Shown here: positions 1 to 9,477 of the stretch, one piece after another | Layout: each line of letters starts with the position of its first letter | Position numbering within the stretch: position 1 is the stretch's first letter | Origin: Fibrobacteria bacterium | GTDB taxonomy: Bacteria > Fibrobacterota > Fibrobacteria > UBA11236 | Direction: 5' to 3' | Assembly (NCBI GenBank): GCA_041746255.1 | Contig: JBGTHM010000031.1 | Location: 1-12,983, forward strand | Length of the DNA stretch: 12,983 bases | The notes under the pieces: model-generated | The model's input: the letters and a program-made list of their open reading frames with translations, nothing else | The model's database searches: none | What the model was told of the DNA's origin: nothing | Made by a program: the position numbers and the translations under genes

Positions 1-141
1 ACGTAGCGAGTCAGGAATGGGGCTCGAAACGGTACCTGAATATGGATTTGCTTAAGGGACACGAACTCCAGGCGCAGGTCGCCTAGTGAGAGTCAGACTC
101 GAGGAGCCAAAATCAATTTGCGAAAGAAACTTGACACTACC
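1..141 (+). mobile_element. IS256-family insertion sequence, right end (transposase tail + terminal inverted repeat)
   Basis: Frame +3 encodes VASQEWGSKRYLNMDLLKGHELQAQVA* (3-86), resembling IS256 transposase C-termini (WG..RYL.M). It is followed by TTTGCGAAAGAAACTTGACACTACC (117-141), a typical IS256 terminal repeat. The flanking repeat sequence resumes abruptly at 142. Confidence 0.8.
3..86 (+). CDS. IS256-family transposase, C-terminal fragment (partial, runs off window)
   Basis: Hand translation VASQEWGSKRYLNMDLL..., with stop TAG at 84-86. It is not in the ORF track because it is 5'-partial. Confidence 0.75.
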   Translation, partial: VASQEWGSKRYLNMDLLKGHELQAQVA

Positions 142-331
142 TGGGTTTTGGACTGCGCTTATGTGTTTCTCTCTCCCCATTCGGGTCGAGAGAAATCCTT
201 AGCTTGCCTCAACCCATCTTCATTGCGCGCTGCGGGTGCTCATTACGGGAACGGTAGCGCCCCACTTCATTCGCATCCTCGCGCAACGGGTATGCTCTCG
301 CAGCCCACTTCCTACTGGGGCAACGTTGGGT
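142..331 (+). repeat. Long attC-like repeat, copy 0 (left part removed or displaced by IS256)
   Basis: Ends in CACTTCCTACTGGGGCAAC|GTTGGGT (core GTTRRRY 325-331). Shares GGGTTTTG (143/2779), CCCATCYTCATT (213/2831) and GCTGCGGG (229/2847) colinearly with copy 2. Confidence 0.75.
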
Positions 332-447
332 GACATGTTGGCTTTTAAAATGTCGCCACTCCACATAAATTGGAATGGCGATAACTATTCTAATTTTTCT
401 TGGCGGGGTAAGATCCAAATGCCGATCTTCTTAGGTCACGAAACTAA

Positions 448-1737
448 ATGGCAAAGATGAAAAAGGAGTCAATCGAAGGTAAGCTTCTTGCCCTCTTGCG
501 ATCCATAAAACTGAAAAATTCCGCGGGATACCTTGCTGGGCTCCATAAATTCGTATTCGACAATGGGCCTCCATTTTCTCCGTTTGGTTGTCCTCAGGTT
601 AAGTGGTGGTTTGAGGATAGAGCTAATGCCTTGATAAACGAAATCGGGCTGATGCTTAGAATTTACGAGCCATCGTTTCAGCGGTTCACAAAATCTGGGT
701 TATCCAAATTCATAAATGAATTTCTTAAATCCCATGCGCTGGATCCCAAACTATTTAATACTCACTATCTCCATCCTCAAAGCACCTTCGAATCATTATT
801 CGAGGCGAGGTCAATCCAAGATATTAAGGAATTTGGAGAATTATTTTTGACGGCGATACTCTCAGAAAAAAGCGAAAACAATGGAAACTGGGTAAATATT
901 TATTCAATGCCGGTGAATATTCATTCCCCCTCGTTCGAATTAGGATATGAAGGGATTTCTGTAATTGAAAACGATGACAATGAGGCTTGGAAAAAAATAT
1001 CGAAAAGATATCTTGGCGTTAATCTTCGGCATACAGGGGAAGACCTGAGGAAAACTCAGCGGCAAGAGTACAAAACCAATATTTGGGTGATTTGCGAAGA
1101 GGTTGGCGTGCAAAGTGTAGCCTCGCATCATGCTGAAATCAAGGTTGGAGCATTCTTCGTAGTTCTCTTGTCACATTTCATCATTCAAAATCCTAGGTAC
1201 ATGCTGAAGAATTCTACGGAACCATGGCCAGTAGTTTTTGAGTACCCAGCAATCTCAAACAAGGACACAACCTCCTCCATCGGGTTCCCAAAATCTTTTG
1301 TCTTTCCAGTCTATCACGATGTCCAGATTTTGCCGGACGACCTCGTTTCTATTAGGAAGTGGTACGATGGGTTTTCGAAAGCGCCCATCGCAACAAGGAA
1401 GAAACTTCTTATAGCCGCACACTTTATGCGTTCGGCGATGACCAGCGAGGACCTGATAAGCTTCACGCTTTTTTTCACCGCGCTGGATGCTATCTATGGA
1501 ATCAAAGGAAATGTTGAGAATTCCATTATTAATGGAATAAGAAAAACCTTGAACGATGAGCTCTGGTGTAAAAAGGCCAAGCAAATTTATCAGCTTCGAA
1601 ACGACATAGTCCACGGTGGGATCACTTCTTTTGAGGAGTGGGAAGAAATGGACCGATATAAGAAGGAATTTCAATCTGCTCCTGAGAACGATATATGGAA
1701 ATTAGCATGCAATTGTATGATGAAATTCTTCGGTTAA
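448..1737 (+). CDS. HEPN-domain protein (Apea-like C-terminal HEPN), gene cassette
   Basis: 429-aa AT-rich ORF. The C-terminus has F..LF.ALDAIYG...IYQLRNDIVHG, with the HEPN RxxxxH motif at 1597-1614. Start is at 448 or 457. Confidence 0.75.
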   Translation: MAKMKKESIEGKLLALLRSIKLKNSAGYLAGLHKFVFDNGPPFSPFGCPQVKWWFEDRANALINEIGLMLRIYEPSFQRFTKSGLSKFINEFLKSHALDPKLFNTHYLHPQSTFESLFEARSIQDIKEFGELFLTAILSEKSENNGNWVNIYSMPVNIHSPSFELGYEGISVIENDDNEAWKKISKRYLGVNLRHTGEDLRKTQRQEYKTNIWVICEEVGVQSVASHHAEIKVGAFFVVLLSHFIIQNPRYMLKNSTEPWPVVFEYPAISNKDTTSSIGFPKSFVFPVYHDVQILPDDLVSIRKWYDGFSKAPIATRKKLLIAAHFMRSAMTSEDLISFTLFFTALDAIYGIKGNVENSIINGIRKTLNDELWCKKAKQIYQLRNDIVHGGITSFEEWEEMDRYKKEFQSAPENDIWKLACNCMMKFFG

Positions 1738-1775
1738 ATGCACCCCGCCAAAAAAAGAGGGAAGCCAACACGATC

Positions 1776-2023
1776 ACCCAACAAAGCCCAGCCGGGGCGG
1801 CGCGGACATGCGTTCGCATTGCGCCGCCGCAAATGGCTCCTCGGGGCGGTTTGGCAATTCGCCATAAGTTTCGAGCTGCGTTCGCTTCGCTCACTTGTTC
1901 TCAACTTTGGCTCATTGCAGCTTGCGCGCGCGGGCTTCGGGGGCTGAAAAACCCCACTACGCCCGCGTGCTCAGCTTTCAAACCTGCCCCTCGAAGCCAC
2001 TTCCGGCTGGGCCAACGTTGTGG
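1776..2023 (+). repeat. Long attC-like recombination site, copy 1 (248 bp)
   Basis: Inverse core ACCCAAC (1776-1782) and core GTTGTGG (2017-2023). Outer stem GCCCAGCCGG/CCGGCTGGGC plus internal hairpins. The inverse core is the exact complement of the preceding core at 325. Confidence 0.8.
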
Positions 2024-2079
2024 ATAATGGCGGGGCAAGAAAAACCTCAAAAATCAATAAAATTCCTTGTTCAATCTCC

Positions 2080-2114
2080 TTGTCTTAATTAAGAAATAAT
2101 TATATTGTAATTAT
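2080..2114 (+). promoter_or_regulatory. Putative sigma70 promoter and autoregulatory operator of the brnTA cassette
   Basis: TTGTCT (2080-2085), 17 nt, TATTGT (2103-2108). The palindrome ATAATTA-N5-TAATTAT (2096-2114) overlaps the -10 and ATG. No Shine-Dalgarno is visible. Confidence 0.55.
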
Positions 2115-2403
2115 GTCTGAACTAGCATTTCGTTGGGATCCGAAGAAAGAAGCCCATAACCAGGAAAAACATGGCGTATCCTTCGAAGAAGCCAAATCTG
2201 TCTTTTACGACGAAAGTGCCAAGCTCATTCACGATCCGGACCACTCCGAAGACGAGGACCGGTTTATCCTGCTTGGTTTCAGCTTGGCATTGAGGCTCCT
2301 TGTGGTCTGCCACTGTTACCGAGAAAATGAATCTACCATACGGATTATTTCGGCTCGAAAGGCCACAAAATCCGAAGCTAAAAGTTATCCGAGGTCACTA
2401 TGA
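2113..2403 (+). CDS. brnT: BrnT-family (DUF497) ribonuclease toxin
   Basis: F.WD..K...N..KHGVSFEEA..VF.D, HS..EDRF..LG and IRIISARKAT..E motifs. Confidence 0.93.
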   Translation: MSELAFRWDPKKEAHNQEKHGVSFEEAKSVFYDESAKLIHDPDHSEDEDRFILLGFSLALRLLVVCHCYRENESTIRIISARKATKSEAKSYPRSL

Positions 2404-2609
2404 GGAAAGAATACGATTTTTCAAACGCAGAAAAGAATCCGTACGCTAAGAAGCTGAAAAAGCAGATCACGATTCGACTCGACGAGGACGCGATCTCCTA
2501 TTTTAAAGGCTTATCGCAGAAGACTGGAATTACCTACCAAAACCTCATCAATCTCTATTTGAAGGATTGTGCGGTATCTCATCGCAAGCTGTCTTTCAAA
2601 TGGCAATAA
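2400..2609 (+). CDS. brnA: BrnA-family antitoxin (ribbon-helix-helix)
   Basis: MRKEYDFS..KNPY..KKQITIRLD..I.YFK.....GI.YQ.LINLYL. ATGA overlap with the toxin stop codon. Confidence 0.9.
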   Translation: MRKEYDFSNAEKNPYAKKLKKQITIRLDEDAISYFKGLSQKTGITYQNLINLYLKDCAVSHRKLSFKWQ

Positions 2610-2684
2610 AAGCCAGTACTGCCCACCCGGAATAAAGAATGCCCCACCACTCGCTCAGCGCTGCGCGCTGGCGGGCTTCACCAC

Positions 2685-2947
2685 CCACAACAAACCGCAG
2701 GGTGCTGCGTGGCACTTTCCAGTGCCACTCCGGGGCTTCGCCCAAATGGCTTTTCGAGGCGGCCCGGCAATTCGGAAAGGGTTTTGAGCGGCGCGAACTT
2801 CGCTTAACGCCTACGTCCGCTTGCTCAAAGCCCATCCTCATTCCATGCTGCGGGCGTTGCCTCCGGGGTACATAAGACCCACTCCGGCTTCGTCCTCGCA
2901 TTCAGCCCAAACTCGAAAAACCGCTTCACCCTCCGCCAACGTTGTTC
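2685..2947 (+). repeat. Long attC-like recombination site, copy 2 (263 bp)
   Basis: Inverse core CCACAAC (2685-2691) complements the preceding core GTTGTGG (2017). Ends CGCTTCACCCTCCGCCAAC|GTTGTTC (2941-2947). Shares CAAATGGCT (1830/2743) and GGCAATTCG (1853/2766) with copy 1 at an identical offset. Confidence 0.8.
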
Positions 2948-3230
2948 AATGGTGGTGCATAGATGCGAACCGCCGCACGTCGTATGGGTAGGGAAATTTA
3001 TAAATATCACAAATGACGCGCGCCCAAGAAATTCGAGAGGGAATAAAAAAGTCCTACTAAGTAATAAGATTTCTCCTACAAGAAAATGGGGGGCCAGTTT
3101 TGAAAATGGGCTTCGATTTACCCAACTCCGCTGGATTTTCCGCCCCTATGGACCGCCCCGAAACACCGGGAACGGGTTTTTCCTGGTAAATTTAGCCGAA
3201 TTCCTGGGAAATAAAATATTTTAACCCTTT

Positions 3231-3765: not shown

Positions 3766-5070
3766 TTGGTGCCTTCCGACGCCTCCGCCGCGGCCCGAGC
3801 GGTCGATGCTGTCTGCCGCATCGAGGCCTCCCGGGTCATCGCCCGCGTCGCGCGCATGGTGCGTGACGTGGGTTTGGCCGAGGAGCTGGCCCAGGATGCC
3901 TTCCTTGCCGCCCTCGAGCAATGGCCGAAAGCCGGCATCCCGGAGAATCCCGGAGCATGGCTGACGGTAGTGGCCAAGCGGCACGCCGTGGACCGCATCC
4001 GCCGGGAGCGGAACTTCGCATCCAAGGAGGAAGCCATCGGATACGAAGTGGAATCGGGGACGCGGGTGCCCGAGTTCGATTTCGAAGAGGATCCCATCGA
4101 GGACGACCTCCTGCGACTCATCTTCACCTCCTGCCACCCTCTGCTTCCCAAGGAGTCCCGCGCGGCCCTCACTTTGCGGGTGCTGGGCGGGCTAACCACG
4201 GAGGAAATCGCCCGTGCTTTCCTGGTGCCCGAGCCCACCATGGCCCAGCGCATCGTGCGCGCCAAACGCACCCTGACCGAAGCCAAGGTCCCCTTCGAGG
4301 TGCCGAGGGGCGCGGACCGCGAGGGGCGCCTGGCCTCGGTGCTGGAGGTCATCTACCTCATCTTCAACGAAGGCTATGCGGCCACCTCCGGCGATCGGTG
4401 GCTGCGGCATGAGCTCTGCGACGAGGCGCTGCGCCTGGGGCGCATCCTGGCCGAGTTGGTCCCCCAGGAGCCGGAGGCCCATGGGCTCGCGTCCCTGATG
4501 GAGATCCAGTCTTCGCGCCTGCGCTCCCGCGTGGGGACGAACGGGAAGCCGGTCCTCCTGCTGGACCAGGACCGCGCCAAGTGGGATCGATTGCTGATCA
4601 GCCGAGGTTTGACGGCCCTGGAACGGGCCGAGAAGCAGGGGAAGGGACTTGGATCCTACGGGTTGCAGGCCGCCATCGCCGCCAGCCATGCCCGGGCCGT
4701 GCGGGCGGAGGACACGGATTGGGTCCGCATCGCCGCGCTCTACGATGCCTTGAGCGAGTTAACCCCCTCGCCCATAGTGGACCTCAATCGGGCTGTGGCT
4801 GTTTCCATGGCCTATGGTCCGGCGGCGGGCCTGGAAATACTGGAGGACCTGGTCGCGGAGGGTGCCCTAGAGACCTATCCGGCCTTGCATGCGGCCCGCG
4901 GGGAGTTGCTCGCGAAGTCCGGCCTGTGGACCGAGGCGCGAGCCGCTTTCGAGTGCGCGGCGGAGCTGAGCAGGAACGGGCCGGAGAAGGAGTTGCTACT
5001 TGATCGGGCGAGAGGGTGTTCCCAGGGCGCCTTGTGGTGGAGGGCAAAACCGAAGGAGGGCGGCCGATGA
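3766..5070 (+). CDS. ECF RNA polymerase sigma factor with C-terminal TPR-like extension (ECF42 group)
   Basis: Sigma region 2 (LAEELAQDAFLAALEQWP..G.P.NPGAWL), region 4 (LTLRVLGGLTTEEIARAFLV.E.TMAQRIVRAK), YLIFNEGY and a ~200-aa helical C-terminus. Adjacent to a DGPF gene. Start is TTG 3766 or GTG 3769. Confidence 0.92.
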   Translation: MVPSDASAAARAVDAVCRIEASRVIARVARMVRDVGLAEELAQDAFLAALEQWPKAGIPENPGAWLTVVAKRHAVDRIRRERNFASKEEAIGYEVESGTRVPEFDFEEDPIEDDLLRLIFTSCHPLLPKESRAALTLRVLGGLTTEEIARAFLVPEPTMAQRIVRAKRTLTEAKVPFEVPRGADREGRLASVLEVIYLIFNEGYAATSGDRWLRHELCDEALRLGRILAELVPQEPEAHGLASLMEIQSSRLRSRVGTNGKPVLLLDQDRAKWDRLLISRGLTALERAEKQGKGLGSYGLQAAIAASHARAVRAEDTDWVRIAALYDALSELTPSPIVDLNRAVAVSMAYGPAAGLEILEDLVAEGALETYPALHAARGELLAKSGLWTEARAAFECAAELSRNGPEKELLLDRARGCSQGALWWRAKPKEGGR

Positions 5071-5351
5071 TCCTGGATATGGATCTGCAAGCCATGGCGC
5101 GAACGTTGGGTTGGCAATTCACACGGCATCCTCTCTGCGCCTGCTAAGACAGGCTTGTTGCAGCGATCTTGTTCACTGCAAGTTACGGGCGGTATGTGCC
5201 AGGGAGAAATGGCGGAGGCCATTCTTCAAAAATTTTCCACTTTTCGAATCCGACTCGCAATAAGAGTTGTGGCGCAAAATTTCAATAAAGAGCAAACGAT
5301 TCAAGTGGAAACTCGCAAATATTTTACGTTTTCCGATACAAGGAGGTTTCC

Positions 5352-5807
5352 ATGACACCACTGTTCAAGAAGCTCAATCTGGGGACCCACGAGACCATCC
5401 TTGTTCTCAATGCCCCGGATTCTTTTGAAGCGGAACTGATACAACTTGCCGGAATCAAAGTATTGCGTAAAATACCGTCAAGCCCAAATGTTCCATTCGT
5501 AATCGGATTTGCAACCAACCAGATGGAACTCGATCAACTATCCGATAAAATTATCAAGTCGATAACTGGAGACGCCATCGCGTGGGTGGCCTATCCCAAA
5601 AAATCTTCCAAGCGGTATAAATGCGACTTTAACCGTGACGAAGGCTGGAATGTACTTGGCGAGGCCGATTTCGAGCCTGTGCGTCAAGTGGCAATCGATG
5701 AAGACTGGTCTGCACTTCGATTCAGGAGAGTCGAGCATATCAAGACGCTGACCAGGAACAAGGATATGGCCATTTCCATCGAAGGAAAAAGACGCACCAA
5801 AAAGTGA
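5352..5807 (+). CDS. Conserved hypothetical protein, DUF3052-like
   Basis: AAGGAGG RBS. LFKKLNL...LVLNAP, W.AYPKKSSK.YK.DFNRD.GW and VRQVAIDEDWSALRFR conserved motifs. Confidence 0.75.
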   Translation: MTPLFKKLNLGTHETILVLNAPDSFEAELIQLAGIKVLRKIPSSPNVPFVIGFATNQMELDQLSDKIIKSITGDAIAWVAYPKKSSKRYKCDFNRDEGWNVLGEADFEPVRQVAIDEDWSALRFRRVEHIKTLTRNKDMAISIEGKRRTKK

Positions 5808-5969
5808 ACCAATCACCCTGGTGGTGGTGGCGTCTCCGATTTGTAGGAAGACGCCTCTGAATGTGTTCGGACTGAGGTGCAGGGAAAACTCCTCCACGCG
5901 CCTGGACATAGCCGGTTTTGGTCGCAGGCTGGCGGAATGGCCCAAGAAGAATAGCACCCGAATTCCGGA

Positions 5970-6023
5970 TATTCGCAGTATTTTAGCGAATATTCCTATT
6001 TATTCGTGGAAAATATGCGAATA
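5970..6023. promoter_or_regulatory. Two tandem palindromic operators TATTCG-N11-CGAATA
   Basis: Copies at 5970-5992 and 6001-6023 with a 31-bp period, ending 20 bp upstream of the ATPase ATG. Confidence 0.7.
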
Positions 6024-7615: not shown

Positions 7616-8422
7616 TTACTTCACGGTGTTCGCATCGAGTGTTACCGCTGTTTGCGCCAGCAATCGACCATTCGCAGTGGCGCCGGTCTTGAGGACAATG
7701 GCGGTCTTGGAAAGTACGACGCCTTCGATATGCGAGGTCGTTCCGAAAACCGCGGTCCCGGCTACTTGCCAGAAAATATTCTTGGCCAAAGCTCCCCCCT
7801 TTAGAATGACTTTGACGCCGGAACTTTGGGTTAGAGTGCCAGCAATCTCGAAAATCCAAATATCCTTTGAGCCGCCTGTGAGGGTTACATTCGTGGGGAT
7901 GAGGACATTGCTGCTCCATTTATAAACGCCAGGACCGAGGTTCCGTCCGCCGATATTTCCTGCGCCCAGTTCGGTGAAGTTTGGAGCCCGGCTGGCGGCA
8001 TCGGAATATGCGGTTTGCATGTCCAGTACCGACGTGGTCAAGTTTGCCGGTGTCGGTGAATCATAATCCGCTGCATAAACCTTTCCGGTTATCAAAGCGG
8101 AGGTCGAATAGGTGCTAGGCGGGGCAATCAAGGAAAAGCCGGTGATGTATGTTGCCGCGGCCGGGCTAACGCCAATATCACCGGTAACCGATGTGTTACC
8201 AGTGGTCGAGATTCCGCTTTTTGCCAAGATCACAAAATTACCTGCCATCCCAAGGTTCACAGAGGCCGTATTTTTGGCGGCTCCGCTGACCTTAAGAGGG
8301 CTTGGTGATATGGTTTCTTCTTTGCTGACGTCCGACAAGCAGCCTACCGTGAAAAACGTAAGCATAAGCGCCATCGTTATTTTCGTCGCGGGTTTTACAC
8401 TGGTCATGTAATATTGATTCAT
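7616..8422 (-). CDS. Ice-binding family protein (DUF3494/IBP-1), probable lipoprotein
   Basis: VNLG.AGNFVILAKSGIS, GDIGVSPAAATYITGF, DMQTAYSDAA.R, PGVYKW and AKNIFWQVAG motifs. Lipobox-like FTVGC. Likely start is ATG 8422 (AAGGA upstream) rather than 8485. Confidence 0.92.
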   Translation of the reverse strand: MNQYYMTSVKPATKITMALMLTFFTVGCLSDVSKEETISPSPLKVSGAAKNTASVNLGMAGNFVILAKSGISTTGNTSVTGDIGVSPAAATYITGFSLIAPPSTYSTSALITGKVYAADYDSPTPANLTTSVLDMQTAYSDAASRAPNFTELGAGNIGGRNLGPGVYKWSSNVLIPTNVTLTGGSKDIWIFEIAGTLTQSSGVKVILKGGALAKNIFWQVAGTAVFGTTSHIEGVVLSKTAIVLKTGATANGRLLAQTAVTLDANTVK

Positions 8423-8914
8423 TTTTTCATCCTTGGGTTTACAGACAAAAAGAAACCGGCTTCGTAACCGCCTCCGTACTCTCAAGTACTGTCATCGAGA
8501 TACATAACAAGATTCGGTTCGACTAGGTTTATCTTTGAGAAGGGACAAACAAGGCTGAAAACGAAGGGTTTCTTTTTGTGGCTGTCCGAGTTACGATTTT
8601 TATGGAGAGATAACTTGCGAATACGAGAGAATGAATTCGCTCCGCGAAGGCCAAAAGCGCGTGATGTCCTCTTCTATCATTCTCACGGCGCTGGCTAAGA
8701 CCAGCTTGTTCCGGTGCTCTTGTTCAATACATGTTGCGGGCGAAGCCTACGGGAGGAAAATGCCCCCACACAAGACATGGAAATTTCAAAACCAGCACTC
8801 CAAGAAAAGAAAAAATGCGCGCGCCGGAAAGACAAAGTTTTACATTCCTTATGATAATCAGCCTAATTATATTTGGTTGGAGAAGAGCATCGCACCCACA
8901 GAGGAGAAACTCCC

Positions 8915-9376
8915 ATGAACAAAGTGACACCTTTCCTCATGTTCAACGACCAGCTCGAAGCGGCGATCGAATTCTACACCGCAACGTTTCCGAACTCGGA
9001 AATACGCAACGTCGCCCGCACGGGAAAGGACGGTCCAATCAGCTCCGCCGAGTTCGTCATTGGTGGTCAACTCTTCATGGGCTATAACGGAGGTTCGTAC
9101 TTCAGCTTCTCTGAGGGTGTCTCGCTCTACGTGGACTGTGCGGATCAGGATGAAGTGGATGAATACTGGGACAAGCTCGTGAAGGCAGGATCAAAGCCCA
9201 CGGCATGCGGTTGGATCAAAGACCCCTTCGGTCTCTCCTGGCAAATTGTCCCTAGACGATTCACCGAGCTAATCGGCGATAGGGATCCCAGGAAGGTGAA
9301 GGCTGTGATGGATGCCATGATGACGATGGTGAAGCTCGACGTGGCGGAGCTCGAGAGAGCCTACAACGAGGCGTAG
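8915..9376 (+). CDS. VOC family protein (PhnB / 3-demethylubiquinone-9 3-methyltransferase-like)
   Basis: KVTPFLMF, FSFSEGVSLYVDC.DQ.EVD.YW.KL and CGWIKDPFGLSWQIVP motifs. GAGGAG RBS at 8901 before ATG 8915. Confidence 0.92.
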   Translation: MNKVTPFLMFNDQLEAAIEFYTATFPNSEIRNVARTGKDGPISSAEFVIGGQLFMGYNGGSYFSFSEGVSLYVDCADQDEVDEYWDKLVKAGSKPTACGWIKDPFGLSWQIVPRRFTELIGDRDPRKVKAVMDAMMTMVKLDVAELERAYNEA

Positions 9377-9418: not shown

Positions 9419-9477
9419 ACCCAACAAGTCGCTGCAGCCGACCGCCTTCGGCGGCGGCTGAGCGGCAGGCGTTAGCC
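9419..9477 (+). repeat. Canonical integron attC site (59 bp)
   Basis: ACCCAAC...GTTAGCC. The stem CGCT[G]CAGCCG[A]CCGCC-TTC-GGCGGCGGCTGAGCG has two extrahelical bases on the left arm and a 3-nt loop. Confidence 0.9.

Follow-up and report, generated by a model that had tools for sequence, protein, structure and literature searches.

The 12,983-nt contig JBGTHM010000031.1 of the Fibrobacteria bacterium assembly GCA_041746255.1 (hereafter the window, which is the whole of contig C31 of this 4.6-Mb assembly, here called G000) appears to be a broken-off, partly decayed piece of an integron-like gene cassette array of the Fibrobacterota. Three large structured repeats near its start separate co-oriented genes, and these repeats are almost certainly cassette recombination sites. 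The account of them that we favour, and consider likely, is an integron-like cassette system whose recombinase lacks the I2 insertion of the integron integrase (IntI) and whose folded sites lack the extrahelical bases (EHBs) of integron attC sites, the great size of the sites being secondary.

Two of the three sites are complete (Table 1), at 248 and 263 bp, and the first is partial because the end of an insertion sequence (IS) fills positions 1-141. Its left half was not found in the assembly when sought by motif and by an 8-bp target duplication with a matching IS end. The IS, which has imperfect terminal repeats of ~28 bp and 8-bp target duplications and which probably belongs to the IS256 family, recurs by the end seen in the window on contigs C13, C64, C65, and C2, and its ends are paired between C57 and C64 and between C47 and C65. 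A public contig is identical to the window over 197-1870 and has different letters before 197, so positions 142-196 may differ between populations or assemblies. An earlier note on this DNA, made from its letters alone, had described the repeats as giant attC-like sites, and the landmarks that it named are in place: GTTGGGTGA at 325, TCACCCAAC at 1774, GTTGTGG at 2017, CCACAAC at 2685, and the third core at 2941. The right-end motif, given there as C(A/G)CTTC followed by nine or ten bases and CAAC-GTTG, starts at 306, 1998, and 2922, with a spacer that is nine bases long in all three copies and never ten.

The identification is carried by the way in which neighbouring sites match. As in attC sites, AAC ... 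GTT triplets stand on both arms, and the left end of each site complements the core of the previous one, a relation that the note had read from the window and that extends well beyond it. We compared the six bases after GTT with the left end of the next site, scored 5 or 6 agreeing places as a match, and repeated the comparison over 2000 permutations. A match was found in 32 of 40 neighbouring pairs from 11 genomes (one pair is present in two genomes, and related genomes are not independent), versus a permutation mean of 4.9 and a maximum of 12, whereas a giant site's own two ends matched in 9/53. The ends of a cassette usually pair 10-20 bases past the core. At least one chaining miss, at locus L019 in a relative, is accounted for by intervening sites of 36 and 58 bp, which keep the terminal stem alone and chain correctly; the branched body is therefore dispensable for chaining, and giant size, which the note had stressed, is real in the window and yet not essential.

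Exchange can be followed by comparison. Contigs C18 and C103 are identical over 119 nt and part immediately past the GTT into different cassettes, each of which brings a matching left end of its own, and one landing site (described below) precedes different first cassettes in G000 and in its relative G001. Gene order is thus not fixed, as the note had foreseen: the same site or landing site precedes different cassettes. Such comparison shows cassettes to have been exchanged at the GTT core, and the two ends of a cassette to have once been joined. The bond cut is taken as G/TT by integron convention.

A hidden Markov model built from the three copies found further copies on 9 other G000 contigs (E <= 7e-6). 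The genes flanking the G000 copies are unrelated to one another and include an acetyltransferase, a DUF5615 pair, an AAA ATPase, a methylase-Vsr-HNH set, and an 868-aa protein. A sequence model from 16 full sites, run over 61 genomes, matched 21 (G021 is among them and is counted only): besides G000, these are 19/31 genomes of the same family, 1/6 of a sister family, and 0/23 of the others, with 15/15 in genus g4 and 0/12 in genus g5. The 54 full giant sites measure 183-319 bp (median 267), and runs of as many as 8 are seen in which sites and unrelated, co-oriented genes take turns. No Rfam family matches the window sites (E <= 1) or the sites of six array loci, where four matches were returned and none lies on a site. 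None of the outcomes that the note had named as refuting its reading was seen. Many G000 copies are split by a bottom-strand group II intron (Rfam RF00029, RF02001) or by the IS, both of which insert in the loop of one same sub-hairpin, and the assembly is fragmented because of these repeated insertions.

Comparison shows that the sites fold as single strands into a conserved branched shape. When folded as bottom-strand DNA and compared to shuffles, site 2 gave z = -5.6 (0/200 as good) and site 3 gave z = -3.2 (1/200). The bottom-strand fold common to 16 sites begins with a 4-bp box containing AAC/GTT, a small asymmetric loop, and a 9-11 bp stem. Next comes a junction that has a GAAG motif and extrudes one or two hairpins; a long second stem then leads to another junction, which bears two arms. 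Of its 66 pairs, 47 change on both sides, and 94% of cells are paired, versus 74% in shuffles (0/500 reach 94%) and 30-45% in slid controls, the advantage over the last being favoured by the derivation of the fold from the same 16 sequences. The terminal stem varies freely in sequence with compensation (5/7 pairs). G-T pairs outnumber A-C pairs on the bottom strand by 64 to 19, or by 34 to 19 minus two near-invariant pairs, and the bottom strand is more stable than the top in 37/51 sites, with a mean advantage of -2.7 kcal/mol. Because pairs covary, G-T exceeds A-C, and the bottom strand is the more stable, a single-stranded fold is, on this comparative evidence, under selection, as DNA or as RNA. 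The fold has the attC features of an R box, an unpaired spacer, an L box, a terminal structure, and a bottom-strand preference, the last being modest.

The sites depart from attC in the extrahelical base. The canonical extrahelical G on the R'' arm, expected near position 9, is seen in 2/50 distinct giant sites (neither of them in the window) versus 9/10 attC candidates of IntI arrays. The attC sites of IntI arrays form a separate family, and their cores are distinct. At locus L060 (G045, 4679-5990), a self-complementary giant site is nested inside an IntI cassette, and at L019 (G003, 4342-5650) the nesting is reversed, with IntI cassettes inside a giant-site cassette.

That no integrase was in view, as the note had it, holds for the window only. 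G000 encodes five tyrosine recombinases over the Pfam cut-off. One, on C56, is a true IntI (TIGR02249, 374 bits, cut-off 265), and another, on C18 (C18:48722-49942), scores 208 bits against the same model, below its cut-off. The C18 enzyme matches PF00589 and PF13495 and keeps the catalytic R, K, H, R, H, and Y, which are invariant in our alignment; in that alignment the I2 insertion is present in the C56 enzyme and absent from the C18 enzyme and four homologues. The best solved relative is VchIntIA (2A3V), by sequence for the C18 enzyme and by fold for its homologue in G013. The recombinase to seek, which the note described as IntI-like, is probably an I2-less relative and not IntI itself.

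The C18 gene points to a short AG-TT site 41 bases past its stop codon, which is followed by two giant-type sites, and its orthologue in G001 (83%) has the same landing site before another cassette. A giant site is reached downstream in 8 of the 22 I2-less loci examined in relatives, and the landing-site core matches the left end of that site in 8/8 of these, with 5-6 of 6 places and extension scores of 11-19; non-cognate combinations matched in 3/56, with a mean of 4.8. At IntI loci with a giant site, the landing site matches at 1, 4, and 3 of 6 places, which is 0/3 at five or more. A dedicated landing site with a variable first cassette is what an integron platform has, located here after the stop codon and not divergent. 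Genus g5 has neither the enzyme (0/10) nor giant sites, and the closed genome G012 has two IntI and no giant site. We think it quite probable that the I2-less enzyme serves the giant sites, and loss of the bulge and loss of the helix that grips the bulge go together.

Some single loci around these enzymes are of interest in their own right. The first cassette behind the C18 recombinase (C18:49982-50564) has no clear gene, and its site has other internal sequence with the same end grammar; similarly gene-poor cassettes of 180-390 bp occur in relatives. The landing site of the true IntI on C56 (C56:28927-29227) is divergent, and its first cassette is cut by the IS after 160 bases, leaving the array unassembled. 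At C23:76353-78444, an I2-less recombinase and an IS91-type transposase stand directly before a cassette ending in a giant site.

In the system that we favour, each cassette would extend from one GTT core to the next and consist of its gene or genes plus one large site. The I2-less recombinase would bind the end of the folded bottom strand, namely the 4-bp AAC box, the small asymmetric loop, and the unbulged stem of 9-11 bp. Cassettes would be excised as circles between two folded bottom strands and inserted at the short double-stranded landing site (..AG-TT) just past the recombinase stop codon, where their genes would presumably be expressed from upstream. The 200-base branched body would be the counterpart of the variable terminal structure of attC and unnecessary for recognition. 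Lacking both an extrahelical base and the I2 helix, the system must prevent the second cut by other means; we conjecture that the GAAG motif or the hairpin branch at the stem end replaces the flipped base or, alternatively, that a one-strand exchange is resolved by replication, as with XerCD on folded CTX phage DNA.

Several observations weigh against this reading, and a number of them would suit a different one, in which the giant sites are oversized attC sites recombined in trans by an ordinary IntI (that of C56 in the host) and the I2-less gene is a bystander with a secondary landing site at its 3' end. IntI over the cut-off is found in 26/61 genomes, including most of those with giant sites, and in G009, which is 98% complete, IntI occurs together with four giant sites and there is no I2-less match. 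Giant sites lie within IntI arrays at three loci (L039, L060, and L068), IntI-type attC sites in the host's family reach 157-164 bp, and, per PMC5027507, some attC sites recombine without EHBs and EHB deletion does not always block IntI. G003 has IntI-type attC sites without an IntI over the cut-off and is therefore not a clean control. We nonetheless regard recombination by IntI as unlikely: the first giant site fits the landing-site core of the I2-less loci and not that of the IntI loci, the attC sites of IntI arrays differ in family, bulge, and core, giant sites are absent from IntI genomes without an I2-less match such as G012 and from all 11 of family f4, and the same I2-less layout heads arrays in Bacteroidota. 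The link between the I2-less enzyme and the giant sites has weak points of its own. Only the 8 of 22 loci above reach a giant site on the downstream DNA examined, at one further I2-less locus the cassette is upstream and divergent, and the landing sites were chosen by the AG-TT motif from few candidates, one of them by eye. A tree of 28 recombinases gives an IntI clade (100/99) and does not recover the I2-less enzymes as a single clade; two of its rows labelled IntI are not IntI, one being out of frame, and both were kept in the tree. The window cannot be linked to C18, since unpaired left ends of the IS occur on C18, on C37, and also past the IntI landing site of C56. Finally, four public runs, searched as contigs, which drop rare forms, contained no contig skipping a cassette at GTT. 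The four joints listed for these runs look like other copies, and none of the public runs listed as containing the sequence is an RNA run. An unusual layout is seen at L025 (G003:C9, 175-1620), where an AG-TT at the 5' end of a truncated I2-less gene is the start of a giant-site cassette that extends in the direction away from the gene.

It is also conceivable, if improbable, that the I2-less enzyme carries out the ordinary two-exchange reaction on double-stranded or cruciform DNA, and that the conserved 250-base fold is selected for a different function, such as that of an RNA or of an intermediate from which new cassettes are made. An unbulged stem has nothing to block the second cut, the bottom-strand advantage is small with 14/51 sites not favouring that strand, the body, though dispensable for chaining, has a strongly conserved structure, and one site end on C37 is inverted. 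Speaking for the folded strand instead are the free covariation of the terminal stem, as expected if fold rather than sequence is recognised, the confinement of exchanges to one end, and the bias of G-T pairs towards the bottom strand. On C37 (1017-1060), a toxin-antitoxin-like cassette has the inverted left end of a site as its upstream core, and this suggests that the top strand was exchanged in a rare event. The sites might, lastly, be a dispersed repeat of the miniature inverted-repeat transposable element (MITE) or repetitive extragenic palindrome (REP) kind, or ends moved by an IS91-type transposase with its own I2-less recombinase, as on C23. Several G000 copies are solitary or self-complementary (C36, C100, and C127/C47), and 1 kb away from the C23 copy there is an IS91-type element whose recombinase is 38% identical. 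The flanks, however, match the previous site and not each other, which target duplication would not give, the sites alternate with co-oriented unrelated genes, chains begin at a defined site behind a recombinase, and Rfam returned no match; the chain statistics largely refute the MITE/REP reading, and we give this whole alternative very little credence. One of the self-complementary copies is an intron-split site with halves at C127:172-356 and C47:3165-3242, between the AAA ATPase gene (best PADLOC match AriA) and the methylase-Vsr-HNH set; its flanks are complementary over 15 bases, and it represents the circular form of a site residing in the chromosome. At C100:104400-105630, the 3' end of the upstream 659-aa gene, presumably uvrB-like, is present a second time and truncates a giant site, with cassette-like genes between.

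The layout of I2-less recombinase, landing site, and array is found outside the host lineage with shorter sites. Three Bacteroidota plasmids encode I2-less enzymes 38-41% identical, with a landing site of that kind behind them and then chains of unbulged hairpins of 50-150 bp, with a bulge count of 0/24 that includes overlapping and spurious candidates. Five of 41 metagenome loci likewise have this layout with shorter sites. A strict hairpin-chain detector found a good link in only 8/44 loci with at least 1.5 kb of downstream DNA, and 9/14 links matched versus 0/2 on the reverse strand; insertion sequences may account for many of the homologues. As the note had guessed, the giant form is specific to its lineage: the giant-site model had no match in 80 metagenome recombinase loci or in the three Bacteroidota plasmid loci. 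A Nanoarchaeota match (L075) was rejected, there being no array behind it.

Compared to known systems, the arrays most resemble sedentary chromosomal integrons (VchIntIA with its Vibrio cholerae repeat sites, VCRs) and clusters of attC sites lacking integron integrases (CALINs), with which they share co-oriented cassettes, the AAC/GTT triplet, a left end complementing the previous core, and the bottom-strand fold. The likeness extends to cargo (toxin-antitoxin and defence genes), to the presence of group II introns within sites (group IIB introns are reported in integrons in PMC7923331), and to the closest solved structure, 2A3V. Unlike attC sites, for which PMC5371416, as far as seen, gives 57-141 bp, the giant sites are far longer, the two complete window sites included; they also lack the extrahelical G, and their cassette ends pair 10-20 nt past the core. 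The enzyme heading the array lacks I2, falls below the TIGR02249 cut-off, and is oriented towards the array, and the landing site lies past the stop codon of its gene. The system would thus be integron-like in operation yet fails three integron criteria: I2, the extrahelical base, and length. In the part consulted of Smyshlyaev et al. (bioRxiv 10.1101/542381), I2-less closest homologues of IntI are termed 'integron-like' tyrosine recombinases and include those of IS91 and IS3 elements. The C18 enzyme answers to the description of this subgroup, which is tied there to insertion sequences and not to cassette arrays or folded sites. The DUF1874 motif, as described in the part of Weinberg et al. 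2017 (PMC5737381) at hand, is also multistem, occupies consecutive intergenic regions, and was proposed as an unusual attC with no integrase seen; unlike it, the giant sites are without an Rfam match, and the present analysis identifies a recombinase, a landing site, and the chaining of cores. XerCD acting on the folded DNA of CTX phage, an integrative mobile element exploiting Xer (IMEX), provides a case of an I2-less enzyme with a folded single-strand site without EHBs (PMC4792948). CTX uses the host XerCD and dif, whereas the present system has an enzyme of its own in addition to XerC/XerD, and its exchangeable cassettes form an array. A full-text literature search, with subscription journals mostly and supplements outside its coverage, returned no description of this system or of sites of such size.

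The feature is real and has a fair chance of being a separate class beside integrons. By a narrow preference, we regard it as a second, undescribed class of cassette shuffling, with an I2-less recombinase and bulge-less folded sites, widespread in Fibrobacterota and Bacteroidota, operating alongside true integrons within one genome, with separate cores and nesting into integron cassettes. If so, it would be either the living form of a state before I2 and extrahelical bases or an independent solution with a DNA branch in place of the flipped base, and the giant branched sites would be its extreme form. In the part of PMC4792948 consulted, the I2 helix and extrahelical bases are held to have co-evolved, making cassette recombination productive, and which of them arose first is an open chicken-and-egg problem; given a natural system that has neither, the problem can be put to a direct test using one enzyme and a site of 58 bases. 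These platforms would be missed by screens in which the I2 domain defines an integron, as in bioRxiv 10.1101/2022.02.06.479319. A survey of 540 genomes of one Bacteroidota species, which may or may not have the I2-less system, reported no integrons with the standard tool (PMC11523902). The arrays hold defence-like and unknown genes and are therefore a source of candidates. A conserved branched single-stranded DNA fold of 250 bases is itself rare, to judge from the part of PMC5737381 consulted.

Table 1. Features of the window and interrupted giant sites elsewhere in G000 (positions are those of the window unless a contig is given).
Feature	Position	Strand	Remarks
IS end interrupting site 1; context, outside the cassette system	1..141	.	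multicopy; 97-100% matches on C13, C64, C65
Site 1, right-hand part only	142..331	+	core GTT 325-327; model match
Leader of cassette 1	325..447	+	pairs with own trailer: 325-345 with about 1762-1782; 394-409 with 1742-1756
Gene of cassette 1, 429 aa	448..1737	+	no Pfam/NCBIfam/PADLOC family
Site 2, complete, 248 bp	1776..2023	+	left end complements core 325; core GTT 2017-2019
Leader of cassette 2	2017..2112	+	TGGCGGGG at 2028 pairs with CCCCACCA at 2642
brnT toxin gene, bacterial type II toxin-antitoxin pair	2113..2403	+	PF04365, E 1.6e-29
brnA-type antitoxin gene	2400..2609	+	PF14384, E 3.2e-7
Site 3, complete, 263 bp	2685..2947	+	left end complements core 2017 (5/6 after GTT); core GTT 2941-2943
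Leader of third cassette	2941..3023	+	75-84% matches to sequence after giant sites or in recombinase loci L021, L023, L035, L037, L045
Remnant: internal arm of another site, without cores	5105..5193	+	nhmmer E 3.8e-5; blastn 78-80% to C18, C37, C23 copies
Remnant of another site, then a known cassette leader, upstream of gene 8915-9376	8672..8835	+	nhmmer E 7e-14
Intron- or IS-interrupted giant sites in G000	C18:51359, C37:64, C103:3320-3479, C127:1-170, C47:3240-4633

The two cassettes of the window differ from the genome in G+C (42% for cassette 1 and 45% for cassette 2, versus 53%). In cassette 1, the pairing of the two ends extends past the core (6/6 after GTT, with a local score of 13 over 27 nt), and a further inverted repeat lies at 394-409/1742-1756; the cassette's leader belongs to a family that also occurs behind the G001 landing site. 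The protein has one homologue, at 80%, and its gene was not found in 60 relatives. Its closest named atlas clusters are HEPN_Apea/ApeA_NTD1 at 0.85-0.88, and an HEPN/ApeA-like C-terminus is a lead only; no function is assigned because the three family libraries gave none and the named atlas matches are below 0.9. For cassette 2, G011 carries the BrnT/BrnA module with the same cassette ends as the window, at places that are not arrays. The module in G001, G013, and G046 was rejected as evidence of shuffling, since no cassette ends or sites are present there.

A closing site for the third cassette was not found in the window, and the array decays from the leader at 2941 onward. The leader that follows the 8672-8835 remnant matches loci L020, L050, L044, L043, L037, and L053. 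Just past the gene at 8915-9376, positions 9419-9477 hold a 59-bp attC of ordinary appearance amid the giant-site region; it has single-base bulges at the canonical places, with C (not G) first and T second, and is of the IntI type. On the reverse strand, positions 7616-8422 encode a protein with an Ice-binding-like domain (PF11999), yet the best-matching public run is labelled as a hot springs metagenome.

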